A stretch of 64,000 nt of DNA from an uncultured Lachnospiraceae bacterium (GCA_910588535.1 CAJUOO010000002.1:47176-111175), one strand, 5' to 3'. Counted from the first letter of the stretch, positions 436-64,000 are shown. Notes: a model not told the origin generated them from the letters alone. Made by a program: numbers and translations.

Positions 436-1440
436 TTACACTATTTCCACACGGTCATATGCCCTGCTGTAAAAATACACATTGTCGGATAAGACTTCTT
501 CCTCCGCAACCTCGGAACCGTTGATTCCCTGAACCATCATTTTCATGTATTCAACATCCATGTCCTCCGTGTCAGGGAGAAAGATAAGCTCATGTATAGA
601 GGACGGGAGAATGTAAAAATCAGAACCGATACACTCCGCAAAATCCCTTAACAGGTTCGGGTACAGAAGGACGGATGCGCCGTTAAGCCTGTCATGATTG
701 GAAGCCACATACATAGGAAACACATCTTCCGTTACCGCTGGCATATCATAAAATTCTCCTGAATCACCAGCATCCAGCATATCCTCCATCATTTCCACCA
801 TCACGCTTTCCATGGACTGCACCCTGCCCCTGAAAATACGCTGCGTGTTCTCCATGGCGATAGGATAGATTGTCTGCGTATCGGTTCCCCATGCATCCAT
901 AAAACTATTTCTTACAAGGATTGTGCCTGCATCTTTATGCCCCCTTGACACCAGAATGTAAAAGACAACGGCAAGGTCATGGTACGGGATATAAGGGATG
1001 CCTGAAAGCAATTCCCTGTTCCGCTCCGCATTTACCAGCTTGAAGCATATCCTTTCTTTCGCACGGTTGAAGTCTGTTACCATCCTGCTGTCAAATCCCC
1101 GTACCGCCTTGCCCTGCTCATATAAGCGCATAATTTCCTTACATACCGCTTCCATTGTCATGCCGTCCTGATATTCTTCAAACAGGCTTTCAAGGTAGAT
1201 GGTCGGGGCTATGTTGATAACCTTCTCACGGATGGCAAGCCCTGTTAAATGTGTGCCGTTGTTCTTCGTCACTGGCTGGATGCTGATGCTATACCCGCTG
1301 CCATAGACCGCCTCCATTGCGCTCTTTACTGTCCCTGCAAATGCCTCCATAGTCCTGATTGTACCGTCTGCCATGATTATGCGTCCTCCTTCGTTGTTCG
1401 AATTGCTGTTAGCTGCTCCGTTATTCTTTGCGTTGTTCAT
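436..1440 (-). CDS. DUF5688-like protein (ICE accessory/leading-region protein)
   Basis: 334 aa with SD AAAGGAG 9 nt upstream of the ATG. It has an Asn/Gly-rich N-terminus followed by a globular domain. The resemblance to DUF5688 is recalled, not searched. Confidence 0.6.
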   Translation of the reverse strand: MNNAKNNGAANSNSNNEGGRIIMADGTIRTMEAFAGTVKSAMEAVYGSGYSISIQPVTKNNGTHLTGLAIREKVINIAPTIYLESLFEEYQDGMTMEAVCKEIMRLYEQGKAVRGFDSRMVTDFNRAKERICFKLVNAERNRELLSGIPYIPYHDLAVVFYILVSRGHKDAGTILVRNSFMDAWGTDTQTIYPIAMENTQRIFRGRVQSMESVMVEMMEDMLDAGDSGEFYDMPAVTEDVFPMYVASNHDRLNGASVLLYPNLLRDFAECIGSDFYILPSSIHELIFLPDTEDMDVEYMKMMVQGINGSEVAEEEVLSDNVYFYSRAYDRVEIV

Positions 1441-1731
1441 AGTGATAATCTCCTTTTCTTTGATAAAATGTGTTGTCGTGTTCCATATTCAGTTGTAAGC
1501 TGCTGTTTCAGGCACAGCTACCATGGATTCTGCAAGGGAACCACCGCCTTTCCTTTGGATTGTGTACAAAAATAGAACAGTTTTATGACTTGTTCAGGTC
1601 AAATAAAAAAGACACCAAGATTTCTCCTGATGCCTTAAATACTCTGATATATAGACCCGTGGGGTTCCGAACGAAAAACTTCTGTAAAAGTTAAAAGCGG
1701 GAACCGAACGGAAAATATATCTGAAAATTTC

Positions 1732-2475
1732 CTATATAACGGGCGTTGCCACACCCATGTTTACATATGTATAATCCACAATAATAATCAAATGGTCATA
1801 CACTACTATCGTGAAAGTCGCTGCCTTATTCCCATCCTCTTTTATTATTATGAATTGCATGGGCGTACAAACCATAGTACCCAGATTATAATATGACTTT
1901 TGCAGACAATCCGCTGCTTCATCAAAAAATGGCATACTTAATTCCCTGCTTGGAATACCATTACCATGCTGCCCTGCATACTTGCAAAAAGCATTATAAG
2001 TATTCAGGATATAATAATCCGTACCAGAATAAAGCCTGTAAAAATCTTCTTTATCAGGTATGTACTCCCACCTGTGATAATCAACCCAATTGCAGAAATC
2101 CTTACCGTCTGGCTCACAGTTTATAAGGATTTTATATTCATTGCATACCAGAAAAAGATACTTATATCCTCTGTAGCTTAGTATTTTTAAGCCGTTATCC
2201 TTACTATTGCTGTTGGCAACATGGTAGCTGCCACTTTCCATAAGGGTGACATATTCCGTATCAGATTCAGGAGCACTCTGCGCCACATAATCAATGCTTT
2301 TCCTGATTCGCTCATTTAACGCTCTGGCATCCATATTATCTTGATAAAGTTCCCAATCTATAAACTCTAAAGGAATCTTTTGTCTTTTTATTTTCTCAAA
2401 AACAATATATAAATTTGTACAAACCATAGTTTTTACTTTTCCTACTTTCCATGTACCACTTCCATAAAACATCAC
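1732..2475 (-). CDS. hypothetical protein (AT-rich cargo gene)
   Basis: 247-aa ORF. The start is uncertain; the ATG at 2427 (M17) has a better AGGAAAAG SD. No motif recognised. Confidence 0.55.
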   Translation of the reverse strand: MMFYGSGTWKVGKVKTMVCTNLYIVFEKIKRQKIPLEFIDWELYQDNMDARALNERIRKSIDYVAQSAPESDTEYVTLMESGSYHVANSNSKDNGLKILSYRGYKYLFLVCNEYKILINCEPDGKDFCNWVDYHRWEYIPDKEDFYRLYSGTDYYILNTYNAFCKYAGQHGNGIPSRELSMPFFDEAADCLQKSYYNLGTMVCTPMQFIIIKEDGNKAATFTIVVYDHLIIIVDYTYVNMGVATPVI

Positions 2476-2524
2476 TCAATTTTTTTAGTATTCGTTTTTA
2501 CTAATAATATATGTATACTTCCTT

Positions 2525-3013
2525 TCAAACCTCTCCCCGCAGCATTTTCGATACAAGATATTCTTTTCCAAAAAACTTTTCATAATCTTTCAAGGTATGG
2601 TTACAGTATAATATAGTTTCGGTGATTTGTTTTTCTAGCGCGATAGTATTATTATTCCTAACTCCTGTTTCATTTAAAATTCTTTTTGCGTTTTCGCAAT
2701 GTACTAGTGCATCCTTATGTAACATCTTATATTTCTCAAAAATCATATCATATTTTTCACCATTGCTTTCCTCCCATTTATCAATCAACTCTTTTATATT
2801 ACTGACTCTTCTAGTGGCAGTAGTACCCCAAATAATGCCAAGGCCATATAATTCGTTTCGCATTTCACATAAGTCTGTAAAGAAACGACCAGCTAGACCC
2901 GTTGCTTCTTTTGCTTTATCGTAATGTTCTAAAACTACATTCAACACACTTGGGTCATCTACTTTTTCAATAGTTACATTTATTTTTCCCCACTGTATAT
3001 CTCCCATTGACAT
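2525..3013 (-). CDS. hypothetical helical protein
   Basis: 162-aa ORF with AGGAGGT immediately upstream. The likely start is the third codon, ATG at 3007. It lies 5 nt downstream of the preceding gene. Confidence 0.6.
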   Translation of the reverse strand: MSMGDIQWGKINVTIEKVDDPSVLNVVLEHYDKAKEATGLAGRFFTDLCEMRNELYGLGIIWGTTATRRVSNIKELIDKWEESNGEKYDMIFEKYKMLHKDALVHCENAKRILNETGVRNNNTIALEKQITETILYCNHTLKDYEKFFGKEYLVSKMLRGEV

Positions 3014-3018
3014 ACCTC

Positions 3019-3378
3019 CTAATAATACTGGAACTCATTAACAAGTTCCCCTTTTTTGTCTATTTCATTCAGGATATCTTCATCCACCTGATATGCAGGG
3101 GCTTCTGTTTCATATGTAGCTTTAATAAAATACCTATCCATTGGATTTTTCTTTGTATAAATTACACCGTGGTTGCGAAGCCTATCTCTTATCCTGCTTA
3201 CTGTCACAACCGCCCTCTGCATATTTTTCCTTGCATTAACTCCCAGCATTCTTCCAACCACATCAGCCGCTGTGTTATTCAGCCAATTTGCAATGCTATC
3301 CCAAAATTTGTCTAAAATAACCGCCAATGCAATCCCCACTACAGCTCCAAGTGCTATTCCTGCTACTACATGCCACAT
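3019..3378 (-). CDS. small membrane-anchored protein (one N-terminal TM helix)
   Basis: 119 aa with SD GGGAGG 10 nt upstream. The N-terminus WHVVAGIALGAVVGIALAVIL is hydrophobic and the rest is soluble. Confidence 0.65.
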   Translation of the reverse strand: MWHVVAGIALGAVVGIALAVILDKFWDSIANWLNNTAADVVGRMLGVNARKNMQRAVVTVSRIRDRLRNHGVIYTKKNPMDRYFIKATYETEAPAYQVDEDILNEIDKKGELVNEFQYY

Positions 3379-3486
3379 AATGTATCTACCTCCCTATCTT
3401 ATATATTTTCTTAATTCCGAGTCATTTATTATAAATCTGGCAAATATGGATTATCTTTTTGCACTCCATATTTTAAACTTATGTCT

Positions 3487-4344
3487 TTATTCAGAACAAC
3501 GAGCTATTGTCGCATATATTTCCTTTTCAGTTTCTTTATCACCACCCGCATATTCTAACGCATAATTTGCTACTTCTATTGCTTTATCTTTTTCTCCGCA
3601 TTCTTCATATATTATAGACATCCATCGATAACAAAAACATGCCATTGTCCGCCAATATGGAATGCCCCTCGATAGATTATCTCCTTGATTATTAGAGAGA
3701 ATCCTCTCTACAGATTCCAGACAAAGATTTGAATATCTTATTACCTCTCGACCATGACCTTCTAAATCAGATTCAGACAATTCAAATTCTGAATTTGACA
3801 TTAGACTAAAGCATTCTGCAATCTCACCATCAGATTCAGCATAATCCAAAGCAGATTGCACCATTTTTAATTCATTATGAAAATCCTTATAATTACCATA
3901 CAGTCTCCCCATATTTATATAATAAGTCCAATGGTCTCTACTCGTCTCTGCGAACCTAAATCCCGCTTTCCATACTTTCATAGCATTTTCAGGCATATTC
4001 ATTCCCATATAACACACGCCCAAATCGTTATGACATAAGAACCTCTGTGTATGAGCACCATAATAATTAGTGCAATATTCTATCGCTTTCGAAAATTCTA
4101 TAACAACTTTCGCATCATTCATCTCCGATAAACTTCGCGCCATCAAATAGTGTCCCCAAAATTTATCAGCATCCGTTTTTGCAAACCACAAAACTTTCTT
4201 TGCCGCATTTAATGCCCCCTTATAATCTGCGCTATTATAAAGAGTCATCGCTTTATCTACTGCGTTTAACAGTGCCTTTCCAGGTGTTCCTTCATATTTG
4301 GTTTCTATGCTTTTTATGGTAACATTCGACCATTCCATTTCCAT
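3487..4344 (-). CDS. tetratricopeptide-repeat protein (operon gene E)
   Basis: 285 aa with repeated ~34-aa A/Y/G-patterned helical pairs (e.g. GHYLMARSLSEMNDAKVVIEFSKAIEY). It starts 6 nt after the stop of gene D. Confidence 0.75.
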   Translation of the reverse strand: MEMEWSNVTIKSIETKYEGTPGKALLNAVDKAMTLYNSADYKGALNAAKKVLWFAKTDADKFWGHYLMARSLSEMNDAKVVIEFSKAIEYCTNYYGAHTQRFLCHNDLGVCYMGMNMPENAMKVWKAGFRFAETSRDHWTYYINMGRLYGNYKDFHNELKMVQSALDYAESDGEIAECFSLMSNSEFELSESDLEGHGREVIRYSNLCLESVERILSNNQGDNLSRGIPYWRTMACFCYRWMSIIYEECGEKDKAIEVANYALEYAGGDKETEKEIYATIARCSE

Positions 4345-4350
4345 AATTTA

Positions 4351-5115
4351 TCATTTCCTCTCTTTCATCCCTCGTTCCGATACTGCATAACCTAATAAAT
4401 TCTGTATTCTATGGGGTGCATACGGTACAATTTCATCTGCCTTAGTATAATTGAGTACCATATCATCCAGCCTGTTTATCTCGGATGCCTGACTGATAAA
4501 CTCCTTCACGTCCACCTGTTCTGCCAACATTATGCTGTTCAGTACCATTTTCAGGATTGCATCAACAGAGCTTTTCACGCTCCCACACATCAGATATGCA
4601 AAATTATCAGCGGAATAATTCGCAAGCCTGTACCAGTGGTAGAATGACAGTTTTGACGATTTTTCAAACTGGTCTGGTGCCATCTGGTGAATAACTTTAA
4701 ATCGTTCCTCCATCATAGTACGCTGCTTTGTCACGCCATCCGCAATCTTATATATCTCCCTTGCCAATACAAATTGCAGCTCCCTATCCGTAAAATCCTG
4801 TATGGTCTTTGCGGAAAGCTCTATCCAGAAATTGCTGATTCCATAGCTCTCTGCGCCGTAATAATAATCCTCATAGACATACACGGTCGGGCTGCTTATC
4901 CCTGCTGCCCCTGCCATATCTCTAACCATCTGGAACACTCTGGGAAACTGTTTTTCCGATACCCTTACTGTCTTCCCAAGGAAATCAGGCAGCTTTATCT
5001 TATAGTCGATTTCGTCATAAACCTTCTCGAAATCCTCCTGAAACATCACACCGCCCTCATACTGGCTGTATGCTTTATCCTGCCCTGCATGGATAAACGC
5101 CGAACGTTCCATCAT
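4351..5115 (-). CDS. M48 (HtpX/Ste24)-fold protein lacking the HExxH zinc site (operon gene D, pseudo-peptidase)
   Basis: 254 aa. The region PTVYVYED...NFWIELSAKTIQDFTDRELQFVLAREIYKIADG follows the M48 pattern, but HExxH reads AREIYK. There is an ATGA overlap with gene C. Confidence 0.6.
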   Translation of the reverse strand: MMERSAFIHAGQDKAYSQYEGGVMFQEDFEKVYDEIDYKIKLPDFLGKTVRVSEKQFPRVFQMVRDMAGAAGISSPTVYVYEDYYYGAESYGISNFWIELSAKTIQDFTDRELQFVLAREIYKIADGVTKQRTMMEERFKVIHQMAPDQFEKSSKLSFYHWYRLANYSADNFAYLMCGSVKSSVDAILKMVLNSIMLAEQVDVKEFISQASEINRLDDMVLNYTKADEIVPYAPHRIQNLLGYAVSERGMKERK

Positions 5116-5777
5116 ATATACACATACACCTCCGTATCTCCCAGAACTGCAAGCACTTCCCCCACAACCTCACGGCATCTTGTTTCTCCCGTTTCCCTGT
5201 AGCATGACTGCAACGCTTCCAATGCCTCCATATCATCAGGGATGAATTGCAGCGCATAGGTTAGGAACGGAACCGCTTTCTTGTACAGCCCTTTCCCTGA
5301 CAGCAGCATTCCGAACACTTTATTTGCAAGGAAATGTCCCTCCACGCTCCCATGCTCCCGAAAATACGCCTCCATCAGCTCAAATGCCTTGTCCTTATGC
5401 CCTGCATGGTATTCCTGCAATCCCTGAATACACTCCATGAACACAAAATTATGACCATCTGCCATCTTCACACAGTCACCCAGATTTTTGAAACTGTTGG
5501 ATGCAAGGAACACCATGCGGTACAATAGCTGCTCCCTCTGCGCCATCAGTTCTGACCTGTGCTTTTTCCCATAGTCCGAATTGTCCTGTATCTCAATGCT
5601 GGTCTTTACTTCGCCCTCAATCCGCTTTAGCTCCTTCTGGATGCGGCTTATCTGTGTCTGCATATAGCCTGTGTCATAAAAATGTGTTTCTTCTATGACT
5701 TTTTCCGTTGCCCCTGATAATGCATTGACAAATCCCATCTCTGCCTTGCGGTACATTGTCACGGTTTTTTCAATCAT
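5112..5777 (-). CDS. coiled-coil / TPR-like helical protein (operon gene C)
   Basis: 221 aa with SD AGGAGGG inside the end of gene B. The N-terminal part is a charged helical segment and the C-terminal part has TPR-like repeats. Confidence 0.65.
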   Translation of the reverse strand: MIEKTVTMYRKAEMGFVNALSGATEKVIEETHFYDTGYMQTQISRIQKELKRIEGEVKTSIEIQDNSDYGKKHRSELMAQREQLLYRMVFLASNSFKNLGDCVKMADGHNFVFMECIQGLQEYHAGHKDKAFELMEAYFREHGSVEGHFLANKVFGMLLSGKGLYKKAVPFLTYALQFIPDDMEALEALQSCYRETGETRCREVVGEVLAVLGDTEVYVYI

Positions 5778-5780
5778 CCC

Positions 5781-6953
5781 TTATCCCTCCTGACCGCTTA
5801 TCTCTTTCTGGTACTGTTCCTCGGTAATGGTTTCCGTGGATACTACCTGAAACCCTCCCGTCCCGCTTTTATCCTCATAACGTTCTCGGATAACATGGTA
5901 GGCATAATCAAACACAGAAAAATCCAGCATTTCCTTTTCCTGCTCCAATGCATACAGGGCAGCATAAAATACCATATCCTTGATATCTGCCCCTGAAATG
6001 CCCCCATAACGCCCTGCAAGGCTGTCTGCTGTGACTTCCCCCTGCAATGGCATTCTCGCCCCTAAATGCAGCTTCCAGATAGCTTCCCGCGCCTCCCTGT
6101 CTGGCATATCGAAATAAACGCTCAACAGGATTCTCCGCTTGAACGCCTCGTCATAATTGCTGATAAGGTTTGTTGTAAAGACCACGACACCCACAAACTT
6201 TTCCAGTTCCATCAAAAGTACGCTTCTGGTGATGTTCACCCCATAATCCGCTGACTGCGTGACGGATGTAAGCCGTTTCCCCAGAAAGGAATCCGCTTCA
6301 TCAAATACCAGCACCGCATCATCCCTTGTGGCGCACTCAAAAGCCTTTCGGATGTTCTTGGGCGTTTCCCCAACATACTTTGATTCCAGCTCCGAATAAT
6401 TGATGTGGTACACTTTCTTGCCTAGAGCCTGTGCGACCGCCTCCGCTGTCATGCTCTTGCCTGTCCCAGCTTTACCATAAAAATTGAGGATGATAGCCCT
6501 GCTGCCATTAAAATATTCTGACATCCCCCATTCCTCGGACATCTTCTTCCTGTGCCTGACCGCTGATATGGCTGTCCTGACCTTCTCCCTGACTTCCTCA
6601 TTCAATGCGACCTGTCCCAGCGAAAACCTCGGTTCGTAGCTCTCTATGATTTCCTGTGCTGGCTCCTGCTGCCCCTGCTTATCATTATCAGATATAGCCC
6701 TGCTGCCCGACTTTCGGATGATGATTTCATCTGGTACGGGGTTGTATCTGGAACAGTTGCCCTTGACCGCCTTTGCCATCTGTTCCAGCATATTGTCAAT
6801 CAGTATCTCGTCCAGCAGTTCCTCTTTCCCGTTTACCTCCCCCGTAAAGACATCCTGCAAATGGAAGCTCACTGTCCTGCCCCCTATGGAACAGTATTTT
6901 GTAATCCCTGCTGCCTTTATGTTCTGTACATCTGGTTCTCTTTTCTGTTTCAT
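5781..6953 (-). CDS. classical-clade AAA+ ATPase with ~150-aa N-terminal non-ATPase domain (operon gene B)
   Basis: Walker A is GKAGTGKS and Walker B is LVFDEAD. It also has the ESKYVGETPKNIRKAF and FKRR motifs. There is an ATGA overlap with gene A. Confidence 0.9.
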   Translation of the reverse strand: MKQKREPDVQNIKAAGITKYCSIGGRTVSFHLQDVFTGEVNGKEELLDEILIDNMLEQMAKAVKGNCSRYNPVPDEIIIRKSGSRAISDNDKQGQQEPAQEIIESYEPRFSLGQVALNEEVREKVRTAISAVRHRKKMSEEWGMSEYFNGSRAIILNFYGKAGTGKSMTAEAVAQALGKKVYHINYSELESKYVGETPKNIRKAFECATRDDAVLVFDEADSFLGKRLTSVTQSADYGVNITRSVLLMELEKFVGVVVFTTNLISNYDEAFKRRILLSVYFDMPDREAREAIWKLHLGARMPLQGEVTADSLAGRYGGISGADIKDMVFYAALYALEQEKEMLDFSVFDYAYHVIRERYEDKSGTGGFQVVSTETITEEQYQKEISGQEG

Positions 6954-7204
6954 TTCTTCCCGCCTTTCCCGAATATCAAAGGTACGGCATTGGGGTTTCT
7001 GGCAAAATAGCCTGTTGCCCTGTTGATGGCTGTATTACCGTCACCATCACGCCAATATCCCGCTACGGATGTACCGTCTTTCCGCATATATGCGCTTACA
7101 TTGTGTGGATGGACATAATGCGCTGGCGTGAGTGTGGTAAACTGCCTCCCCCTGCCACTGAATGTATTGATTGCATAAGGCTGGAATGTCGTTTCCCCTA
7201 ACAT
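6950..7204 (-). CDS. small soluble protein, Gly/Arg/aromatic rich (operon gene A)
   Basis: The track ORF starts at a GTG (7213). The ATG at 7204 has SD GGAAAGG about 8 nt upstream. Motif: YMRKDGTSVAGYWRDGDG. No TM segment or signal peptide. Confidence 0.6.
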   Translation of the reverse strand: MLGETTFQPYAINTFSGRGRQFTTLTPAHYVHPHNVSAYMRKDGTSVAGYWRDGDGNTAINRATGYFARNPNAVPLIFGKGGKK

Positions 7205-7232
7205 ATCTTTCACCTTTCCTGTCCGCTACAGT

Positions 7233-7255
7233 CTGTATCTTATTTTTCGATACAG
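7233..7255. promoter_or_regulatory. inverted repeat CTGTATC-N9-GATACAG in the divergent promoter region (possible operator)
   Basis: A perfect 7-bp inverted repeat lies between the first gene of the minus-strand operon and the XRE gene. Confidence 0.3.
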
Positions 7256-7357
7256 CTACACATATATTAACATATTAATAACTAAAATGCTACATCATGT
7301 TACATTTTTCTATGTTATGCCAAATAAAATTTTTATAAATGGAAGGTGGATAAGGAT

Positions 7358-7786
7358 ATGAAGGAACGGCTGCTCCCTGAAAAACTGAAAGAACTGCGGA
7401 AAGCGCACAACTACACACAGGATTATGTGGCTGCTGCCCTCGGTGTTGTGAGGCAGACCTACAGCCATTATGAATCTGGCAGAAGGACACCAAGCCCCGA
7501 CATCCTCTATAAGCTGGCTGGGCTTTACAATATCACCGTGGATGATTTGATGCAGCTCACGATTGAATTAGACCGCAATGTCTACTATGATGCACCAGCA
7601 CCCACACAATCCAGTGAGGATTTAGCTGGGTTCCTCGAATACTTCAACAGCCCGAACAACAAAAAGAAATACCAGCTTTTCAACAATCTGGAAAAAGAGC
7701 TGCTGTATTATTTTGAGAAGATATCAGAGGATGATAAGAGGGAAATCATAGAGTTTACGAAAATCAAAGCACATAAGAACAGATAA
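7358..7786 (+). CDS. XRE-family helix-turn-helix transcriptional regulator
   Basis: The HTH signature is LKELRKAHNYTQDYVAAALGVVRQTYSHYESGRRTP. The ATG at 7358 is preferred over the GTG at 7346 (SD GGAAGGTGG). Confidence 0.85.
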   Translation: MKERLLPEKLKELRKAHNYTQDYVAAALGVVRQTYSHYESGRRTPSPDILYKLAGLYNITVDDLMQLTIELDRNVYYDAPAPTQSSEDLAGFLEYFNSPNNKKKYQLFNNLEKELLYYFEKISEDDKREIIEFTKIKAHKNR

Positions 7787-7829
7787 CAGCCAAAGTATAG
7801 CATGACCGTACTCTGGCTGTTCTTGTATT
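7785..7829 (+). terminator. possible intrinsic terminator of the XRE gene
   Basis: The stem AACAGCCAAAG / CTCTGGCTGTT has 1 mismatch and is followed by a weak T-rich tail, CTTGTATT. Confidence 0.35.
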
Positions 7830-8297
7830 AAAGCCATATATAGGAAGGGCTGGGTATATATCTTTTTGTTTCTTTAAAGGAAAAGGAGTCGGTTCTCCCA
7901 GAAATTTTCACTGGATTTTCCCCTATACTGCGATTCCAAAAATATATATGCAGATTTTTCTCCCTAAATTGGCAGTTTCTTTAACCTATAACAGCAAAAA
8001 AGATACCATTCATAGAAGTATATCCTATGAATATAGTATCCCTAAGTTAACAATATTGTGTCGTCATCAAGAGAGACAGACTGACATATTATTAAAGAAA
8101 ATATTGCTCTAATCTGCATCCGCTAATCTTCATTGACTTGGCTGCTGCCACGCTATGCTTTGCTACAATATTCTATATTATAATATAATTCGCTAAGATA
8201 TGCTCTGCTCTGCAATATCCACTTTCAAATATACACCAGCCGTCTCTTCTATTAAGATAACACACTCCGCATAAAAAGACAATCAACTAAACAATAT

Positions 8298-8870
8298 TCA
8301 ATTTTCACACTGTAGCCTCTTAGCCCGCAACAATGTACTTTTGCTGATGCCTGTCATTTCTGAAACCTCTTTGTAAGAATGATTCTCCAATAGCTCCATA
8401 GCATGATTCAGTTGTGCCCTGCCATACTTCGGTGGTCTTCCCTCCTTAAAGTCAGGGTTCTGCCTTGCTATGGCTTTCCCTTCCCCTGTGCGCTCCACAA
8501 TCATATCACGCTCAAATTCCGCAAATGCAAGCATGACGTTCCGCACCAGCTTCCCCGTAGGGGTATTGTCCATCATGCCCATATTCAGCACATGGACGGT
8601 GATACCCTTATCAAGCAATGACTGTATCAGTTCAATGCCCTGTGTGGCACTTCTGGCTATCCTGTCCAGCTTCGTGACCTTCAATGTATCGCCTGGCTGC
8701 ATGACTGTCAGCAGCTTATCCAGTTCTGGGCGGCGTGATTTCGTTCCCGTAAAAGCATCTGCATAAACCTCCTCTGCCCCTGCTGCCCTTAGTGCGTTCT
8801 CCTGTGCTTCCAGACTGTTCCCGTCCTTTGCCTGTGTCTTTGTTGATACCCTTGCATAACCGTAAATCAT
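8298..8870 (-). CDS. small serine recombinase (resolvase/invertase family)
   Basis: [13 protein letters not shown] carries the catalytic Ser, and there is a C-terminal HTH ([16 protein letters not shown]). The ATG at 8870 has SD AAAGGAGAA. The upstream 44 codons of the track ORF are discarded. Confidence 0.9.
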
Positions 8871-9027
8871 AATGTGTTTCTCCTTTCGTAATTTGATTTC
8901 AGGAATCAAAAAAAGAAGGTCATTACAACCTTCTCCTAATGATACCCATGATTCTATTTTGTTACTTATGAATATAAGAAATGACACCACTGGAAGCCCC
9001 ATAAAACCGTAGGTCAGCAGTTGGTGT

Positions 9028-9045
9028 CATAACTTAAAAGTTATG
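9028..9045. other. perfect palindrome CATAACTT-AA-AAGTTATG (hix/res-like candidate recombinase site)
   Basis: Two 8-bp half sites surround a central AA, about 160 bp upstream of the recombinase start. The loop is too short, and there is no T-run, for a good terminator. Confidence 0.3.
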
Positions 9046-9059
9046 GTACTACACAATAC

Positions 9060-9848
9060 TTACCAAGATAATTTACCATTCTCTATTTGTATCGGTTTAC
9101 CTTGAACGTTTGATAAAACTTGCATGATTCCAGCAAACTGCAATTGCACCCCATTTGACTTAATTGTCACTCTCATTGCATTATTAGGTGTTAATGGTCT
9201 AAACAGTCGTATCGTTTTCATTTTCAATCTAACAGGAGTTCCGTTAATACTTCCATCTACCTCACCTGTACTATCATAATGAGTTGAATCCTCTGGTTGC
9301 ACATCAAATTCTTCATATTTGTTATTAAAAATAAAAGCAAAATTTGCATCATTTTCGCTAAACATCATTGCCCTGATTTCTATTTTAATCAATTTATCTG
9401 ACACAATATCTACTACAGCCTTTACGTTCTCTATATCCGCCAAAGCTTTATATGTACTATTTCCTTTTGCTACGCACTTCATTTGTGCAACTGCATCATC
9501 TAAACCAACTCCATACAAATCTATATATAATGAATCGGTTAATATAGCAGGAGGTTTACAATCCGCAATTCTTACAGGTACAAATTTCAAGTTCTCGTTT
9601 ATGGACTTAGTTAATCCACTTTGCCATTCCTTTGTTACCATCTTACTGTTTAAACTATTTGGAGATAAAAAATAGAAGAATGTAGTAAACTTTTCTATCC
9701 CTTCATTCATTTTTCCAATTATGCTATCTCCTGGCTGTATAGACCATTTATCATAAAAAATATTATTTCTTCCAAATTCCAATTCCAACCTTCTTGCAAC
9801 CATATCTACTATTTGTTCATCATTATGGTTATAACTAATAAAAATCAT
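9060..9848 (-). CDS. TIR-domain protein with ~130-aa beta-rich C-terminal domain
   Basis: MIFISYNHND ... NNIFYDKWSIQPGDSI ... FLSPNSLNSKMVTKEWQSGL matches the bacterial TIR pattern, including the Glu before Trp. The ATG at 9848 has SD AAGGAGG. Confidence 0.85.
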   Translation of the reverse strand: MIFISYNHNDEQIVDMVARRLELEFGRNNIFYDKWSIQPGDSIIGKMNEGIEKFTTFFYFLSPNSLNSKMVTKEWQSGLTKSINENLKFVPVRIADCKPPAILTDSLYIDLYGVGLDDAVAQMKCVAKGNSTYKALADIENVKAVVDIVSDKLIKIEIRAMMFSENDANFAFIFNNKYEEFDVQPEDSTHYDSTGEVDGSINGTPVRLKMKTIRLFRPLTPNNAMRVTIKSNGVQLQFAGIMQVLSNVQGKPIQIENGKLSW

Positions 9849-9934
9849 TTTACATGACCTCCTTCTCAAATGTTATTGTTAATCTATTCTCAGCATATCT
9901 ACGCCATTTAAAATCCTATCCTAAAATTTTTCAA

Positions 9935-13393: not shown

Positions 13394-14194
13394 CTATATA
13401 ATCTCTCCGCGAATTAAATTATAATCTGCTGCACATTTCCTTAATCCATCTATAACAGTGCTAAACCTTACACCATATTTTTTTGCCTTATCACAATTCA
13501 TCCATAAATTATGTCTCGCAGGACTATCTTCTAACTTAACTGTTCTCCCCAATAAATCAATGAATTCTTGAGTAATATCATACATTGATTTTGTTGTTTC
13601 ACTACCAAAATTATATACGCCTCCCGGTAAAGCAATGGCTTTTTCTATGTTTTTTCCTACTTCTTTCAAATATGTAATCCCTCGAAACTGTCTGGAACTA
13701 AACGAGACACTTTCTTTTGCATGAATAATATTCATAAAATAATTTGTTTTGTTCAAATAATAATCATACATCCATTCAGCACGCAATATCACTACATTAG
13801 GATTCATTTCTAATACCCTCTGTTCCATCTCTAACTTATGTTTTGCATATATATTTTTCGGGTTTACTATATCCTCCTGATATGGTCCTTCTTCGTTACA
13901 TCCATTATAAACCTGATCCGAACTAAAACAGACTAATTTCCTGTCTTTTGATGCTTGTGCAATAAAAAGTGGAATTTGCACATTTGCATAATAAGAAGCA
14001 TCTGGGTCAGCTTGACACACTCCCATATCAGAAATAACAGCAGTATGAATAATGACATCTGCGTCACTTTCCGCGATTATGCGATTTATTTCTTCTTGCG
14101 TGACATTACGAAGCGATGGAGCAGCAATTGTATTCTTATATATCTCCATTATTTTATGACCTACAAATCCATTCGCCCCTGTTACCAAAATCAT
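13394..14194 (-). CDS. NAD-dependent epimerase/dehydratase (RmlD-like sugar-nucleotide reductase)
   Basis: Contains the Rossmann motif VTGANGFVG and the YxxxK motif (YAKHK). The ATG at 14194 has SD GGGAGGA 5 nt upstream. Confidence 0.8.
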   Translation of the reverse strand: MILVTGANGFVGHKIMEIYKNTIAAPSLRNVTQEEINRIIAESDADVIIHTAVISDMGVCQADPDASYYANVQIPLFIAQASKDRKLVCFSSDQVYNGCNEEGPYQEDIVNPKNIYAKHKLEMEQRVLEMNPNVVILRAEWMYDYYLNKTNYFMNIIHAKESVSFSSRQFRGITYLKEVGKNIEKAIALPGGVYNFGSETTKSMYDITQEFIDLLGRTVKLEDSPARHNLWMNCDKAKKYGVRFSTVIDGLRKCAADYNLIRGEII

Positions 14195-14348
14195 ACTATC
14201 CTCCCAAATTGTCACTATCTAAATTCACTCAAATCCTACAAATTTCTGCTCTCTTATACTCTCACACAACAAGATTTTTATATGATAGTACAGTTATCCA
14301 TAACTTCTTGTAGGATAAATGTTCGTTCATCATTTTCGAAGAAGGTCC

Positions 14349-14489
14349 GTATAGCCAATCCGCTGTTTTCCTCCGTCACCCCGCTCCCGCTTAGTGAAAA
14401 ACGTAATGGATACTAAGCTCGTAAAATACCTCGCTAAGTACCAACGTTTTTCAATAGGTTCCTTGAGGAAAACAGCGGATTGGCTATAC
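14349..14489 (+). repeat. structured palindromic repeat module 1A (candidate ncRNA / hairpin element)
   Basis: A 23-bp perfect outer stem (GTATAGCCAATCCGCTGTTTTCC / complement) encloses the conserved core TCCGTCACCCCGCTCCCGCTTAGTGAAAAACG ... CGTTTTTCAATAGGTTCCTTGAG. Confidence 0.7.
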
Positions 14490-14839
14490 TACTTTACTAG
14501 ATGTTTCAGACACGCTGTACATCTGCATATACTTACAGCTCCATATCTATTCTTATTCCCTCGAATAACTAGACAAGTGACTGCTTACAGTTATATGATA
14601 ACTGCCATGAAAATCAAAAATTCCACTGCAAATACTCAATTTGACCCACATTTGTAAATTTACACAACTATAGTTATCAAAAGATACTTTGCTGATTTTA
14701 TTTTTTCTATAATCAATACACGTAGAATTGTAAGCAGGAAGTTAGTTTTATGTTGTACAAAATTACCTGTTTTTTGACTTGTGGGTTAAGTTAAATGCAA
14801 GCAGAATTACAATTTGTTTCGCCTAACTGATAAAACAGT

Positions 14840-14975
14840 CTGGTGAATTGTCTGTGGTTCTCAAGGAACCTATTGAAAAACGCCGGCGGTTAGCGAGGTA
14901 GTTTCGAGCTTACCGTCCGTTGCGTTTTTCACTAAGCGGGAGCGGGGTGACGGAGAACCACAGACAATTCACCGG
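14840..14975 (-). repeat. structured palindromic repeat module 1B (inverted relative to 1A)
   Basis: It has the same core in reverse complement. The outer stem differs (CTGGTGAATTGTCTGTGGTTC / GAACCACAGACAATTCACCGG) but is still self-complementary. Confidence 0.7.
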
Positions 14976-15128
14976 ACGGAACTTCCCCAAAATGATACAG
15001 CAAATTTTAAACAACAGAAAAAATATAAAACTCACAAAAAACTATAATAAATTGCTATATTTATCTATCCCAGAAATAAGTAAATTCAGCTAAGAAGATT
15101 ATATACAAAAACTCTCATTCTATTATTT

Positions 15129-15162
15129 AAAAAACAGGCAGAACAACAATATGTCCTGCCTT
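15129..15162 (-). terminator. intrinsic terminator downstream of yhaM
   Basis: On the minus strand: AGGCAGGACATATTGTTGTTCTGCCTGTTTTTT. Confidence 0.5.
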
Positions 15163-15287
15163 TAAATCACAAGTACAGTTTAGTATAGTTAAAAGTATCG
15201 CTGGTTTCGACACCCTGCGAAGCCAGCTTCACCTATAAAATCCACAGCAAACCCATATGGAAGCAATATCTGCTCAAAAATACAATA

Positions 15288-16244
15288 CTACTCTGGATTG
15301 ATCTGGCTGGTTCTTCTTAGATTCGAGTCAGCAAAGCGATTAAACCCAAGCCAGCCGTCATTGCCAGCCGCATTATCAAGTATCTCTGTCATCATCTCCA
15401 GCTTATCGTCCGCCACATCGGCAAAATTAAGTGCCATCGCCTCCACAAGTGCTGGTTTCTTTGGCGAACCAAATTCTAGCTCACCGTGATGTGCCAAGAT
15501 ACAGTGCTTCAACTCACTTGCAAGTTTTTGTGGAAAGCCCTCTATTTTTCTAATATGTTCACCGATCAGCTCACTTCCAATAACAATATGCCCCAGAAGC
15601 TGTCCATCGTCTGTATAATCATTCTCTGGAAAAGCAGAGATCTCCCAAACCTTTCCTATATCATGGAACATGGCCGCAGGAATCAAAAGATCATATTGCA
15701 ACACCTTATAATTCTCTGTAAAATATGAACATATCTTTGTAACTCCGAGCGTATGCTCCAACAAACCGCCTATAAATCCGTGATGGACTGTCTTTGCCGC
15801 AGAATGTTTTTTAAACCTATTGATAAATTCCTGATCCTCCACAAAAAAGCTGTCAACCAACTTCTTCATGTAGGGATTGCGAATTTTAGCCGCATAGCCC
15901 ATCAACTCACAATACATCTGTTCAATATCCCGGCTGCTTGCCGGAAGATAATCTGCCGGATTACAGTCCTTTGCCTCAATTTTGCGAATACGCTTAATAT
16001 TTAACTGTTTTGTGCCGTTAAAGACCGTCACCTCACCCATAACCTCAACATAATCGAGTGAATCAAAATCCTCTATTCCCATGGAATTTGGCTCCCAGAT
16101 CTTTGCGTCAAGAACTCCCGTCTTATCCTGCAAGATAACATTGTCATAAGCCTTCCCATTCTTTGTCACTGCTGACTGCTTATATTTACACAAGTACACA
16201 GACTGTACCCGCTCTCCTTCTGTGATATCCTTAATATATTTCAT
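15288..16244 (-). CDS. yhaM: 3'-5' exoribonuclease YhaM (OB-fold + HD domain)
   Basis: It has an N-terminal OB-fold pattern (VYLCKYKQSAVTKNGKAYDNVILQDKTG) and an HD domain (MFHDIGK, ILAHHG). SD GGAGG is 6 nt upstream. Confidence 0.85.
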   Translation of the reverse strand: MKYIKDITEGERVQSVYLCKYKQSAVTKNGKAYDNVILQDKTGVLDAKIWEPNSMGIEDFDSLDYVEVMGEVTVFNGTKQLNIKRIRKIEAKDCNPADYLPASSRDIEQMYCELMGYAAKIRNPYMKKLVDSFFVEDQEFINRFKKHSAAKTVHHGFIGGLLEHTLGVTKICSYFTENYKVLQYDLLIPAAMFHDIGKVWEISAFPENDYTDDGQLLGHIVIGSELIGEHIRKIEGFPQKLASELKHCILAHHGELEFGSPKKPALVEAMALNFADVADDKLEMMTEILDNAAGNDGWLGFNRFADSNLRRTSQINPE

Positions 16245-30985: not shown

Positions 30986-31056
30986 GCGGGTGTAGTTCAA
31001 TGGTAGAACACTAGCCTTCCAAGCTAGATACGTGGGTTCGATTCCCATCACCCGCT
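30986..31056 (+). tRNA. tRNA-Gly (anticodon UCC)
   Basis: Cloverleaf folded by hand: acceptor GCGGGTG/CACCCGC, anticodon loop CTTCCAA, T-loop TTCGATT. No encoded CCA. Confidence 0.9.
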
Positions 31057-31085
31057 CTGGCGTCAGTTTAATATTATTTTTGTAT

Positions 31086-31157
<72 letters not shown>

Positions 31158-53664: not shown

Positions 53665-55614
53665 TCACAACTTCTGAATCTTTAAAAGCTCCTCTTGAAT
53701 CTGCCCTGATAACTCCTCCACCAGTTTGGTGCTTGCAGCAATCTGCTCTGTCGCAGCCGCAAGAGTATCCACTCTCTGATCCACCTGAAACACAAGCCCA
53801 GACAAATTTTCTGCCTGCTGTCTTAGATCTTCCATAAACTTCTTCACCTTTGCTGAAGTATCATTGGAATCCTTTGCCGCATCACGACTCGAATCTGACA
53901 GATTCTTAATCTCTCCTGCCACCACTGCAAAACCCTTACCGGCTTCACCAGCCTTCGCTGCCTCGATGGATGCATTGAGTGATAACAGCTCCGTCTCAGA
54001 AGCAATGTCAAAGATCGATTCATTATTCTTCTCAATGCTGTTTAACAAATCCGTAATATGCCCGAACGCTTCTGCCATCTGCCTGCTGTAATTATTAATA
54101 TTCTGCATATTGACCGCGATCTCTGTGCTCTCCTGCGCATTTCCCTCATTCCCCACACTCACCTCTGAAAGTGAGCTCTGCATAGACTGAAAGCTTTCTG
54201 TCACATAATCAATAATGTCCCTCACGGTATCTGCGCGCCTTATTCTCTCCTCTGTCTCCGCCTGTACCTGAGCACTGAGTTCCTTCACATGCTCCATCTC
54301 CTCCATCGCCAGATCCTTCATATAATGGATACAATTCTCTTTAAAATTAATTCCATTGTAGATCGCACACGCCATATCCCTACAACTTGCATACCCGCAC
54401 GCGGAGCAATCAACCTGCTGCTGTTCTGCTGTATGTTTACCCATCTCATCAAATATTTTTAAAATCTCTTGATTGGATACTGGTTTTCCTTTTATCTGGC
54501 TTGATTTATTAGTATAATGGCGAATAAAATCCTCCAGCCTCAGCTTCCTAAATTGAAAATTCAAAGCTGCTAATCTTCTTCTTGGCGAAAGCTTTCTGCC
54601 CCATGCACCTCCATGCTTCATGCTACTCTCGCGAATCTTCTGAATATTCATCAGAGTGTCATCACCCTTTGCTTTGCTCTCCTCAATTCCAGTGCCATAC
54701 AGGCATCCCTGAGAACAATTTAAAGCATCCACCATAAAAGGAAGCTGTTTTCCTGTATGTATTCTCTCCTGATACTCCTTCAAATACTCATACATATGCC
54801 TTTCGCCCTCTGACTGACGAACAAAGATCTCATCCCCAAGAAACCAATATATATTTTCCTTCAACCCACCGGGTGTGGGATAAATAGAGCCAAGCCCATA
54901 CTCTATCTCATCCTTCGCCAGCGCATTTCCAGACAATTTGTGTTCCTTAATATATTGTACTAAATGCTGGAATGTGACATTATAAGATACATAGCCCCCA
55001 CAATTCTGATCCATAATCTCATTCTTTTTGGCTATACAAGGACTGATAAAAGCCAGCTTATCCCTAAGCCCCATGTATTTCTTCACATAGATTGCCGCGC
55101 ACATCAAAGGACTGTGCACTGGCATCAGTCGTGACAGAAGATCAGGCATATTTTTCTCAATATAATCTACTACTGCCGGACATGGCTGAGAAATTCCGCC
55201 AAGAAAATGATGTGATTTTATATAATTCAGATATGCCCATGTTGTGATATCCGCCCCGAAAGACACACTAAAAATCCGATTAATCCCGGCATTCTTTAAA
55301 ATACCTAGATACTTCTGATACTCCGACGGATAGTTCGCCATAAAGGCTGGCGCTATCAAAAGTGAAATCTTCTCTCCCTTTTTCAAATCCTCAAAAAAGC
55401 TTTCTGTGTCATCCCTGTAGGATCTTGCATTATGCTTACAGGCATCAAAACAAGCTCCACAAGAGATACAAGCATCTCCCTCCACCTCAATCCTGCTGCT
55501 TCCATCCAAAAGCTTGACTGCATAGTTGGCGGATGGAACTGGACATACCGAAATACATTTGTTACACACAATACAATTTTCGTTAGTATAAACTAATCCC
55601 GTGTTTTTTCCCAT
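53665..55614 (-). CDS. [FeFe]-hydrogenase-like sensory domain fused to a methyl-accepting chemotaxis signalling domain
   Basis: N-terminal 2x[4Fe-4S] ferredoxin motifs (CIVCNKCISVCP, CISCGACFDAC). H-cluster-like motifs are PCP, SPCIAKKNE and CSQGC. The C-terminus has the MCP motif LLSLNASIEAAKAGEAGKGFAVVAGEI. Confidence 0.8.
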   Translation of the reverse strand: MGKNTGLVYTNENCIVCNKCISVCPVPSANYAVKLLDGSSRIEVEGDACISCGACFDACKHNARSYRDDTESFFEDLKKGEKISLLIAPAFMANYPSEYQKYLGILKNAGINRIFSVSFGADITTWAYLNYIKSHHFLGGISQPCPAVVDYIEKNMPDLLSRLMPVHSPLMCAAIYVKKYMGLRDKLAFISPCIAKKNEIMDQNCGGYVSYNVTFQHLVQYIKEHKLSGNALAKDEIEYGLGSIYPTPGGLKENIYWFLGDEIFVRQSEGERHMYEYLKEYQERIHTGKQLPFMVDALNCSQGCLYGTGIEESKAKGDDTLMNIQKIRESSMKHGGAWGRKLSPRRRLAALNFQFRKLRLEDFIRHYTNKSSQIKGKPVSNQEILKIFDEMGKHTAEQQQVDCSACGYASCRDMACAIYNGINFKENCIHYMKDLAMEEMEHVKELSAQVQAETEERIRRADTVRDIIDYVTESFQSMQSSLSEVSVGNEGNAQESTEIAVNMQNINNYSRQMAEAFGHITDLLNSIEKNNESIFDIASETELLSLNASIEAAKAGEAGKGFAVVAGEIKNLSDSSRDAAKDSNDTSAKVKKFMEDLRQQAENLSGLVFQVDQRVDTLAAATEQIAASTKLVEELSGQIQEELLKIQKL

Positions 55615-61940: not shown

Positions 61941-63302
61941 TTACAGCTCTCTCATAAAAAGATTGGTACTTCCAAATGCCTGAAGAGGAAGCTGATAGGC
62001 CGACGTCTGTTCCTTTTTTATCCCACATTCGCCCAGCTGTTCTAATATCTCCGCCGGACATTTCTTGTTGGCAACCAGATAGTATGCCTGCGGATAATTT
62101 TTTACCGCCTCTTCCGGCGGCAGGATTATATGCCCATAAAAGCTTTTTCCCCATTTTTCTCTGTTATTATCACAGACAGCCACGATATTTTCTAGTCGGT
62201 TCATCCGCATAAGGCATAGAGCAAATTTTGCTGCTTTTCCACTGCCAAATATAACAATCTGCTCTTTATCAGCCATCTTTTTAACAAAATCCCCATATAA
62301 GTCATGGTCTGCTTTTGCTTTTATTTCTATATAATCCTCATAAGACGCCGGCTTTTCTGTAAATAACCGCATCTCAATCCAATGCTGAGGCAGCATCTCC
62401 TCTTGTTTTAACAGCCCGTCTTCTCTGTCTTTTATAATTATCTGACGAAATTCGTCCAGCACAGCAAGAATTGCTTTGTCTGGCTGGCTGTGTTCTCTGT
62501 ATGTTGTATATGGGGACAATGCCATCATCACCGTTTCTCTCGCGAAAAAAGCTCGTCTCGCTCTATCTGTCAATCCGTCCTCTTCCATCCTTTTTCTAAT
62601 ATATTTATATTCCGCAAGATTAAATTCTGCAAATCTTGAATTATAGGTGGAGGAGGCCGCGTTGTCTCTTCGATAATGATAGAATAGCTGACTTAAAAAC
62701 ATCCCTCTTCTCAGATTCATATCGGTTAAATAACGAAAACCACAATCCTGAAAAGCTGCTCCCTTCGTTTCATTGAGCCGAATATGAAATTCACGAAGAA
62801 ACGATAGCTTATATATACCATTCCATATGTAAATATCAGGAGACAGCCTGTTTTCTGTAAAATATTGATAGGATAGTATCTTATCACAATCAGTGAAAGG
62901 ATATTCCAAAAGATATTGTTCTTTTTCATAGGGTGTCACTAATGTACAAAAGCCTGCCTTGACATAATCCAACTCTTTCTCTACAGCAGCTTGATATAGA
63001 GTTTCATACATATCTGGCTCTATACTGTCATCTGTCTCTACAATTCCCAGATATTCTCCCTTCGCGATGTCCATACCCAAATTAACTTGATAGCCATAAC
63101 TTTTTTTGTCAGAACAAATAAGATGAATCCGCTGATCTTTGGCGGCATACTCTTTTATTATTTCGCAGGTGCCGTCTGTGGAACCGGCATCGATACATAA
63201 AATTTCTATATCAGATAATGTTTGATTCATTACACTTTCTATACATTCTCCTATATATGCTACCACATTTAAGGATGGCAGGATAACAGATATTTTCGGC
63301 AT
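61941..63302 (-). CDS. family 2 glycosyltransferase with C-terminal extension
   Basis: Contains ISVILPSLNVVAYIGECIESVMNQT ... DAGSTDGT and a DxD-type motif (ETDD). Confidence 0.85.
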   Translation of the reverse strand: MPKISVILPSLNVVAYIGECIESVMNQTLSDIEILCIDAGSTDGTCEIIKEYAAKDQRIHLICSDKKSYGYQVNLGMDIAKGEYLGIVETDDSIEPDMYETLYQAAVEKELDYVKAGFCTLVTPYEKEQYLLEYPFTDCDKILSYQYFTENRLSPDIYIWNGIYKLSFLREFHIRLNETKGAAFQDCGFRYLTDMNLRRGMFLSQLFYHYRRDNAASSTYNSRFAEFNLAEYKYIRKRMEEDGLTDRARRAFFARETVMMALSPYTTYREHSQPDKAILAVLDEFRQIIIKDREDGLLKQEEMLPQHWIEMRLFTEKPASYEDYIEIKAKADHDLYGDFVKKMADKEQIVIFGSGKAAKFALCLMRMNRLENIVAVCDNNREKWGKSFYGHIILPPEEAVKNYPQAYYLVANKKCPAEILEQLGECGIKKEQTSAYQLPLQAFGSTNLFMREL

Positions 63303-63381
63303 ATTGCACCTCCATTTTCATTATTAATAACTATAACTTCTTGTAAGATAAGTTTTTTGACATCATTTTCGAAAGAGGTTC

Positions 63382-63522
63382 GTATAGCCAGTCCGCTGTT
63401 TTCCTCCGTCACCCCGCTCCCGCTTAGTGAAAAACGTAACGGATACTAAGCTCGTAAAACACCTCGCTAAGTACCAACGTTTTTCAATAGGTTCCTTGAG
63501 GAAAACAGCGGGCTGGCTATAC
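63382..63522 (+). repeat. structured palindromic repeat module 2A
   Basis: Near-identical to module 1A. The outer stem carries one compensated A-T to G-C change and one T-G pair. Confidence 0.7.
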
Positions 63523-63691
63523 TGCTTTGCTGAATATTTCACATACGCTGTGATTCTTCATATACTTGCAGCTTTGTGTCTATTTTTTGTATTCATAGAT
63601 CATCAAATTTTTTTAAGGAAGACAATAAAAATTATCTATCAATCCTATACAAGCAGAGATACAGCGTGTTTTGCCTTATCGATAAAAACAG

Positions 63692-63829
63692 CCCGGCGAA
63701 CTGCCTATGGTCCTCAAGGAACCTATTGAAAAACGCTGGCGCTTAGCAAGGTATTATCGAGCTTAGCGTCCACTGCGTTTTTCACTAAGCGAGAGCAGGG
63801 TGACGGAGGACCATAGGCAGTTCGCCGGG
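63692..63829 (-). repeat. structured palindromic repeat module 2B (inverted relative to 2A)
   Basis: The core is nearly the same as in 1B (2 substitutions, CCCCGCTCCC to CCCTGCTCTC). The 22-bp perfect outer stem (CCCGGCGAACTGCCTATGGTCC / complement) differs from 1B at 5 positions, all compensated. Confidence 0.7.
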
Positions 63830-64000
63830 TGGATCTCTCCAGAAAATGATACAGCAAATTTTTAACAGCAAATAAAGTATAACACTTACAAAAAAGTATA
63901 CAAAATGGCATAGAACAACGCTTATCCAAAGCAATTCTTATATGTTTTCACATGCAAAAATCTTTCTCTAACTAAAATCTGTTTCATTTCCTTATATGCT

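Follow-up and report, generated by a model that had tools for sequence, protein, structure and literature searches.

The window (the whole stretch of DNA analysed here, 64,000 nt from an uncultured Lachnospiraceae bacterium) carries a large fold-back element at 14300-15046 (locus 1). The element raises the question of whether its hairpins act as RNA, as a DNA site or as neither, and to which class of bacterial repeat, if any, they belong.

Structure of the element at locus 1

The two inverted, rod-like hairpin modules of about 140 nt that the initial annotation had described at this locus were present, each with a conserved asymmetric core and a variable apical helix. The outer left end of the element is the leader of unit A (14300-14348, plus strand), which aligns with 63332-63381 and includes TATAAC/TTGTAGG as well as ATCATTTTCGAAGAAGGTCC. 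The left and right leaders are inverted repeats of each other; the consensus of the left one was also found 5' of modules in the loci from metagenome-assembled genomes (MAGs) described below. Module A (14349-14489, sense on the plus strand) had a covariance-model score of 181.6 bits. Its outer arms (14349-14373 and 14465-14489) form a perfect 25-bp stem, a stem that had been reported as perfect at 23 bp. Between the arms, all on the plus strand, lie the C-rich core strand (14374-14394), the two inner helix strands (TGAAAAACG, 14395-14403; CGTTTTTCA, 14445-14453), the apical hairpin enclosed by them (14404-14444) and the 3' core strand ATAGGTTCCTT (14454-14464). The inner helix was found as annotated, at 9-10 bp, and in both modules an inner 13-nt inverted repeat surrounds TGAAAAACG/CGTTTTTCA.

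The spacer (14490-14837) is non-coding: the tails of units A and B form its two ends, and the AT-rich stretch between them is variable; the separation of the modules, first put at 350 bp, was measured as 348 bp. Within the unit A tail, a sequence scan alone identified a promoter-like TTCAGA-17-TATACT facing module B (14505-14533, plus strand). Module B has its sense on the minus strand and a score of 167 bits; it is inverted as annotated, and its span was corrected from 14840-14975 to 14838-14977. Its 25-nt arms (14838-14862 and 14953-14977) are of the B type and 96% complementary. The core equals that of module A: the strings CCGTCACCCCGCTCCCGCTTAGTGAAAAACG and CGTTTTTCAATAGGTTCCTTGAG are exact in both modules in opposite orientation, where shuffled sequences are expected to give 0 such matches. 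The apical helix differs in sequence with complementarity kept (TAC/GTA in module A, CGG/CCG in module B), and the bulged A and the A-A mismatch attributed to it were both found. The outer right end is the leader of unit B (14978-15046, minus strand), an inverted repeat of the left leader (…CAAAATGAT) of which the last part is CTCACAAAAAACTATA. Over 14334-14424 and 14902-14992 the two sides are 77% complementary overall, and the flanks outside the modules are, as claimed, inverted repeats of each other, if imperfect ones.

Each module was predicted to fold as RNA with a dG of -68 to -89 kcal/mol (z -8 to -12 against shuffles, on either strand) and as DNA with a dG of -38 to -51 kcal/mol (z -8.5 to -12 against shuffles). 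The HD/OB-fold gene (15288-16244) has a canonical intrinsic terminator at 15136-15161 (minus strand), just beyond the element's right end, so transcription of that gene probably ends before module B.

Second copy in the window and gene context

Searches with the core strings recovered a second complete copy of the element at 63332-63900 (locus 2), in which the CCGTCACCCCGCTCCCGCTTAGTGAAAAACG/CGTTTTTCAATAGGTTCCTTGAG core recurs at 63406-63500 (plus strand) and 63713-63806 (minus strand). By alignment with locus 1, this copy comprises the leader of unit A (63332-63381, plus strand), module A (63382-63522, plus strand; covariance-model score 176.7 bits), a spacer (63523-63690) with a promoter-like site at 63538-63566 (plus strand), module B (63691-63830, minus strand; 170 bits) and the leader of unit B (63831-63900, minus strand). 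Flanks, modules and both spacer ends match between the loci; only the spacer middle differs, giving spacer lengths of 348 bp at locus 1 versus 168 bp at locus 2. The covariance model detected four modules in the window in total.

The window is ordinary chromosome of a spore-forming member of the Clostridia, encoding SpoIIE, SpoVT, YabQ, TilS, FtsH and MutS2. Locus 1 adjoins an RmlD-like gene (13394-14194) and locus 2 a GT2 gene (61941-63302), with both elements directly upstream; from there, they may affect the expression of surface structures. Locus 2 is inside a polysaccharide gene cluster, and the GT2 glycosyltransferase gene is encoded on the minus strand.

Copy number, dispersal and variants of the unit

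In a species-representative genome collection, the 20-mer of the 3' core strand was found in at least 36 stretches; among the 36 matches listed, 35 were from two uncultured Clostridia MAGs (U and W), and many were at contig ends. Individual loci or contigs are given L-numbers below. Family loci numbered at least 17-18 in each of MAGs U and W and at least three in the window's own genome, where the third locus, with three modules, is on another contig of the assembly (GCA_948577435.1). JGI metagenomes yielded 0 hits for a gapped pattern and three stretches for the plain 20-mer, just one of which had modules by covariance model. The conceptual peptide across the antisense module matched 12 unnamed protein clusters, every one originating in metagenome assemblies of ENA or NCBI; the sample source was mouse gut wherever a record name stated one. 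No match was obtained in plasmid collections, in phage collections (BLAST) or in viral contigs (scan).

The 87 proteins flanking MAG copies were unrelated housekeeping proteins (tRNA synthetases, ribosomal protein S2, chaperonin, NrdD, transporters), so the placement upstream of sugar genes in the window is probably incidental. No flanking gene was common to MAG U, MAG W and the window, and no conserved ORF was found in the elements (0.45-0.8 kb). Full-text searches of the literature returned no description of the family. It is a genuine, undescribed, non-coding family of dispersed composite palindromic repeats of some animal-gut Clostridia.

The unit of the family measures about 250 bp. From a leader it runs through a 25-nt arm, the core and the second, complementary arm into a T-run and a short conserved tail. 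The leader (about 50-75 nt) has the consensus TATAA..TTGTAAG...ATCATTTTCGARRAGGTCCG. The conserved core combines the C-rich strand and a 10-bp helix with an apical hairpin that varies and with AATAGGTTCCTT; CGTAGCGG of MAG copies corresponds to CGTAATGG or CGTAACGG in the window. After the T-run, the tail reads ..CCAGACACG.. in MAG W and ..TTCAGACACGCTG.. in the window. About 40 nt of non-palindromic core are almost invariant across the three lineages, and arms and apex vary. Two arm classes, A (GYAKAGCC...) and B (..CAGAGAA.TG.CTAT.GTCCTC), were recognisable in all three sampled lineages. Near-identical arms are common to many copies per genome and define subfamilies, which indicates recent amplification of these subfamilies. 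The ATCATTTTCGARRAGGTCCG leader stands inverted at both ends of doublets in the window and in MAGs U and W. As both modules of a doublet face the spacer, the leaders are the terminal inverted repeats of the whole element. The initial annotation had noticed these flanks at locus 1 without treating them as conserved termini.

Arrangements included convergent doublets as in the window and also solo units (L016, L005, L022), tandem units (L024, L026), units truncated at the 5' side at a gene end (L003, L031) and fused forms, among them two 3' halves joined head-to-head (L014). A mini-hairpin lacking the core was present in L002 (87-170). Apical hairpins were alternative or enlarged in L005, L015, L019 and L028. 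An alternative or extra apex (GCGCATAAT..GAGCTTGCG..ATTATGCGC) replaces or lengthens the usual one in these four loci and in L031 and L036, so that the tip of the rod is modular. Hybrid-arm modules (one A arm and one B arm: L001, L004, L035, L029, L002, L020) occurred in the fragmented MAGs only and may be recombinants or assembly chimeras. Assemblies often break exactly at the border of arm and core, as expected for a repeat.

Covariation and the RNA reading

Twenty-eight modules were scored against a structure that we specified; controls consisted of partners slid by 1-3 columns and of 500 shuffles. Standard pairs were formed in 95.4% of cells, versus 35-44% in the slid controls. Changes on both sides were found at 24 of 45 pairs, and the observed covariation score was reached by 0 of the 500 shuffles. 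Covariation was located in the apical helix and in the outer arms. The inner helix of 10 bp was essentially invariant, as were the GCUUA/UAGGU pairs that we proposed, so that the statistics speak neither for nor against these pairings. These statistics indicate that the hairpin is real in an evolutionary sense, and they bear out the conserved core with covarying helices that had been noticed in the two modules of locus 1.

With three hybrid-arm modules excluded, 999 pairs were scored, comprising 957 Watson-Crick pairs, 11 G-T, 17 A-C and 14 other mismatches. On the sense strand of the module, G-U accounted for about 1% of pairs and was no commoner than A-C, without strand bias, in a comparison resting on 28 transition mismatches in all. 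The two pairs that switch most (73-102, C-G/U-A 20:8; 74-101, G-C/A-U 15:13) had no G-U intermediates. Selection on one RNA strand should tolerate G-U and exclude A-C. Watson-Crick-only compensation, with G-T no more frequent than A-C, therefore argues against selection on a single RNA strand. Covariation by itself is no proof of RNA, because compensation of the Watson-Crick-only kind can arise at the DNA level. The initial proposal of a structured RNA or a hairpin-recognised DNA site was accordingly upheld for the hairpin and disfavoured for RNA, where the wobble signature was absent; the DNA site is plausible, with no enzyme found in the window or among the 25 best-represented flanking Pfam families. 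As stated at the outset, the modules matched no known RNA family: at the Rfam gathering threshold the window gave only two tRNAs, and a permissive search of the element region (E up to 10) gave nothing credible, the best sub-threshold matches being miRNA models at 25 bits.

The main rival, which we consider possible though doubtful, is a structured RNA: each unit would be either a gene for a small RNA or an element that acts in cis as a processing stalk, terminator or insulator. Transcripts would then begin at the leader and end at the T-run, and a doublet would represent two convergent genes. The 25-bp arm would act as a double-stranded stem for processing by an enzyme such as RNase III, for which a perfect 25-bp RNA duplex would be a substrate. 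The C-rich unpaired strand (UCCUCCGUCACCCCGCUCCCGC) would serve as a seed for pairing to Shine-Dalgarno regions, in the manner of the C-rich small RNAs found in Firmicutes. The very stable fold with covariation is consistent with such a role, as is the combination of varying helices with an unpaired core strand that is invariant, C-rich and contains CCUCC. Units also took any orientation to their neighbours, as independent genes do (25 co-directional and 17 divergent by our own count). The near absence of G-U pairs, including at the two switching positions, and the lack of an Rfam match weigh on the other side. The T-run itself points both ways: it follows the hairpin on the 3' side in nearly all copies, but it begins 2-3 nt past the stem, and none of the modules received a terminator call in the scan.

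Promoter-like signals were similarly divided. Many MAG copies have a -10-like box (TATAAT, CATAAT or TGTAAT) immediately 5' of CATTTTCGAG, as the RNA reading would have it, but the boxes are inconsistent: they lack canonical -35 spacing, the A leaders of the window have GTTCAT or TGACAT in their place, and the consensus promoter scan of the window called no leader box. The only promoter-like site called by scan in both window loci was TTCA[GC]A-17-TATACT in the A tail, which was also seen by eye in L074 and lacks conservation in MAGs U and W. For the B leaders of the window lineage, a canonical promoter was considered and rejected, the TTGTAA and TAAAAT motifs being spaced 21-22 nt apart.

Structural alleles between close strains

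Locus 1 was compared with that of close relatives whose RmlD-like protein falls into one cluster with that of the window at 90% identity and which share the gene order HtrA-like, HD, element, RmlD-like, HD, GNAT. In the orthologues of window positions 14195-15287 (L066 1785-2501, L068 and L069), module B was intact, and the core and inner arm of module A and most of the spacer were deleted at a junction with AAAACAG microhomology. Within about 50 nt of arms, the orthologous B modules differed by one compensated pair and three single changes. RmlD-like homologues at 74-84% identity were not syntenic and had no modules.

At the third locus, three structural alleles were found between near-identical flanks. 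L073 (9590-10620) and L086 contain a fused double element in which B> is followed by a degenerate <A joined to an A tail and then by <B. L084 (1923-2635) has a standard B>..<A doublet with a different gene (Fic) after it. L080 (3711-4080) has a single B module with inverted leaders directly on both sides, and the two B arms of L073 are joined in its chimeric 3' arm (junction CAATTC|GCCGGGC). Since arm pairs are palindromic, any arm repeats the arms of other modules in direct as well as in inverted orientation, which makes the elements hot spots of deletion and fusion. The elements accordingly mark such hot spots between close strains, and they break short-read assemblies. For an RNA gene these alleles are unfavourable, as the core of module A was lost in a close relative and at a second locus another strain retained a single one of three modules. 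The orthologous loci showed no empty site and no insertion polymorphism, only deletion and fusion alleles of pre-existing copies; no target-site duplication was recognised, and the outer boundaries were fuzzy.

The same observations bear on whether the family needs any function at all. Neutral or selfish palindromic DNA without a dedicated enzyme could spread by general recombination and replication slippage, its arms staying complementary solely because quasi-palindromes are corrected (by intrastrand template switching) or because extruded hairpins undergo mismatch repair. Deletion junctions at microhomology and inside arms agree with this account, as do the compensated pair and the single changes in orthologous arms, the Watson-Crick-only pairing without strand bias, and the finding of no enzyme in the window or among the listed flanking Pfam families. 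We nevertheless judge it unlikely. The roughly 40-nt core has stayed almost invariant over three lineages while arms and apex changed, which indicates purifying selection on sequence, unlike neutral palindromes; and occupation of many unrelated intergenic sites, with lineage-specific subfamilies, requires a copying mechanism.

A further account is that the element is an inverton in which a site-specific recombinase flips the promoter-bearing spacer and thereby controls downstream polysaccharide genes. Its appeal lies in the window, where inverted repeats bracket a short spacer with a promoter-like site conserved between the two copies, RmlD-like and GT2 genes lie downstream, and a small serine recombinase is encoded 5 kb away (8298-9002). 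A resemblance of the TGAAAAAC half-sites to the hix/gix sites of serine invertases was set aside, since here they are about 40 bp apart. Hybrid-arm modules, which crossover in the core is expected to produce, occur in the MAGs, but may be assembly chimeras. However, no inversion was observed: at locus 1, locus 2 and the third locus, all spanning contigs from independent assemblies were collinear, in a single orientation. The repeats measure 140 bp against about 20-30 bp in invertons, units also occur solo and in tandem, MAGs U and W lack a conserved spacer promoter, and the neighbours there are housekeeping and not surface genes. Membership of the inverton class was rejected, both orientations not being seen at contig level and no consistent class of regulated genes being found, and we regard inversion control as very improbable.

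Comparison with known repeat systems

REPINs are non-coding, extragenic, high-copy and vertically persisting, and form inverted doublets with long hairpins in single-stranded DNA or mRNA in which compensatory changes are common (PMC3116915). The Clostridia family is likewise dispersed, extragenic, multi-copy and hairpin-forming with compensatory changes, and shares with REPINs and BIMEs the higher-order clusters and decayed singlets. It differs in that the conserved REP sequence forms the stem in REPINs, whereas here an asymmetric, non-palindromic core is held in a 140-nt rod of which the stems vary. It also fails the definition of a REP (a palindrome of 20-40 bp with 5' GTAG), having no conserved GTAG. 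BIMEs are composed of Y and Z units, which the two unit types of alternating orientation recall, but the units here measure about 250 bp, with convergent doublets of 0.45-0.8 kb and two conserved arm classes. RAYTs are tyrosine transposases that mobilise REP doublets and are encoded by a single-copy gene with the repeats on its flanks; the host here is a Firmicute, and no RAYT (Y1/HUH) was found in the window or in the best 25 of 119 flanking Pfam families.

Correia/NEMIS, ERIC, BOX and RUP elements are multi-copy, non-coding sequences between genes, shorter than 1 kb, in which terminal inverted repeats are combined with strong hairpin potential. Bacterial MITE-like repeats can also bear promoter- or terminator-like signals and be co-transcribed. 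The elements described here are likewise small, non-coding and multi-copy, with conserved terminal inverted repeats. The initial annotation had set the locus apart from a classical MITE on the ground that it is the core and not the termini that is conserved; this was weakened by the inverted leaders conserved outside the modules in three lineages, by the dispersed multi-copy state and by decay and rearrangement between close strains. On the other hand, neither a target duplication nor a cognate IS was identified in the loci examined, and without one of these the family cannot be called a MITE. Each element end, moreover, is a complete internal palindrome with its own covarying arms, and the A and B arm classes are conserved across species.

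In integron attC sites, the subterminal hairpins of IS200/IS605 and CTX attP, structure is conserved and stem sequence varies, and asymmetric unpaired bases in hairpin-recognised DNA sites could give strand selectivity. Our modules are much longer than any of these sites, with a 25-bp perfect outer stem; they lie on opposite strands, whereas IS200/IS605 hairpins lie on one strand and attC arrays are co-oriented, and no integrase or TnpA was found near them. Integron attC sites were rejected as an identification, because the modules of the window converge, searches of the window gave no Phage_integrase domain, and no GTTRRRY (R/L box) ends were seen at the modules.

Preferred reading and search for an enzyme

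Taking these likenesses and differences together, we give an even chance to the reading that the elements are a new REPIN/BIME- or MITE-like family of palindromic DNA repeats. With the same balanced confidence we attribute the family to amplification and recombination at the DNA level, with hairpin and core as the recognition structure; mobility, an enzyme and DNA-level selection are what we infer here. The element would amplify and rearrange as DNA, its hairpin forming either as a cruciform or where the DNA is single-stranded, and an enzyme encoded elsewhere would recognise the non-palindromic core, by a logic like that of REPIN/RAYT, IS200/IS605 ends or attC. Complementarity of the arms might be kept by the requirement for a hairpin or by quasi-palindrome correction during replication. 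Several observations stand against this DNA-repeat reading: no transposase (in the window or the listed flanking families), target duplication or empty site was found; the hybrid-arm modules may be assembly chimeras; the wobble comparison comprises 28 transition mismatches in all; and the T-run and the C-rich strand with CCUCC are also expected of a small RNA gene.

More tentatively, the modules could be sites recognised by a putative Firmicutes transposase or recombinase that is specific for hairpins in single-strand DNA, in a system functionally analogous to REPIN-RAYT or attC-IntI. Selectivity for strand and orientation would then come from the invariant asymmetric internal loop, and the freely varying arms would need only to pair. 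REP/REPIN-type systems have been described mainly in Proteobacteria and cyanobacteria. Structured, persistent repeats in gut Clostridia would extend REPIN-type intragenomic sequence populations to Firmicutes and would also point to a partner enzyme not yet known.

Genes for such an enzyme were sought in the window and around the family loci. The window contained no transposase or HUH/Y1 gene, the best-represented 25 of the 119 Pfam families matched by flanking genes included no recombinase or transposase family, and the loci examined held no cognate autonomous IS with the same ends. The long spacers of L014 and L010 had no transposase-like ORF. In L014, the 900-bp spacer between modules contains an ORF for a 96-aa acidic protein (645-935, plus strand; MDKARIYIDFNEMVSEDVYLL...), not transposase-like by eye. 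A conserved small peptide in the spacer was also considered and rejected, as by eye the frame was not kept across lineages.

Other features of the window

Positions 436-9869 are a probable mobile or defence island, for which no link to the repeat family was found. It contains a DUF5688 gene (436-1440), five ORFs without Pfam hits, an AAA ATPase (5781-6953), an HTH_3 protein (7346-7786), the small serine recombinase mentioned above (Resolvase and HTH_7 domains, 8298-9002) and a TIR-domain protein (9060-9869). Two adjacent tRNA-Gly genes (30986-31157, plus strand; anticodons TCC and GCC) were the sole Rfam or ARAGORN hits in the window. In an ORF at 53665-55614 (minus strand), a methyl-accepting chemotaxis signalling domain is joined to an Fe-only hydrogenase large-subunit domain and 4Fe-4S clusters; judged by this domain content, the product looks like a sensory hydrogenase-like chemoreceptor.
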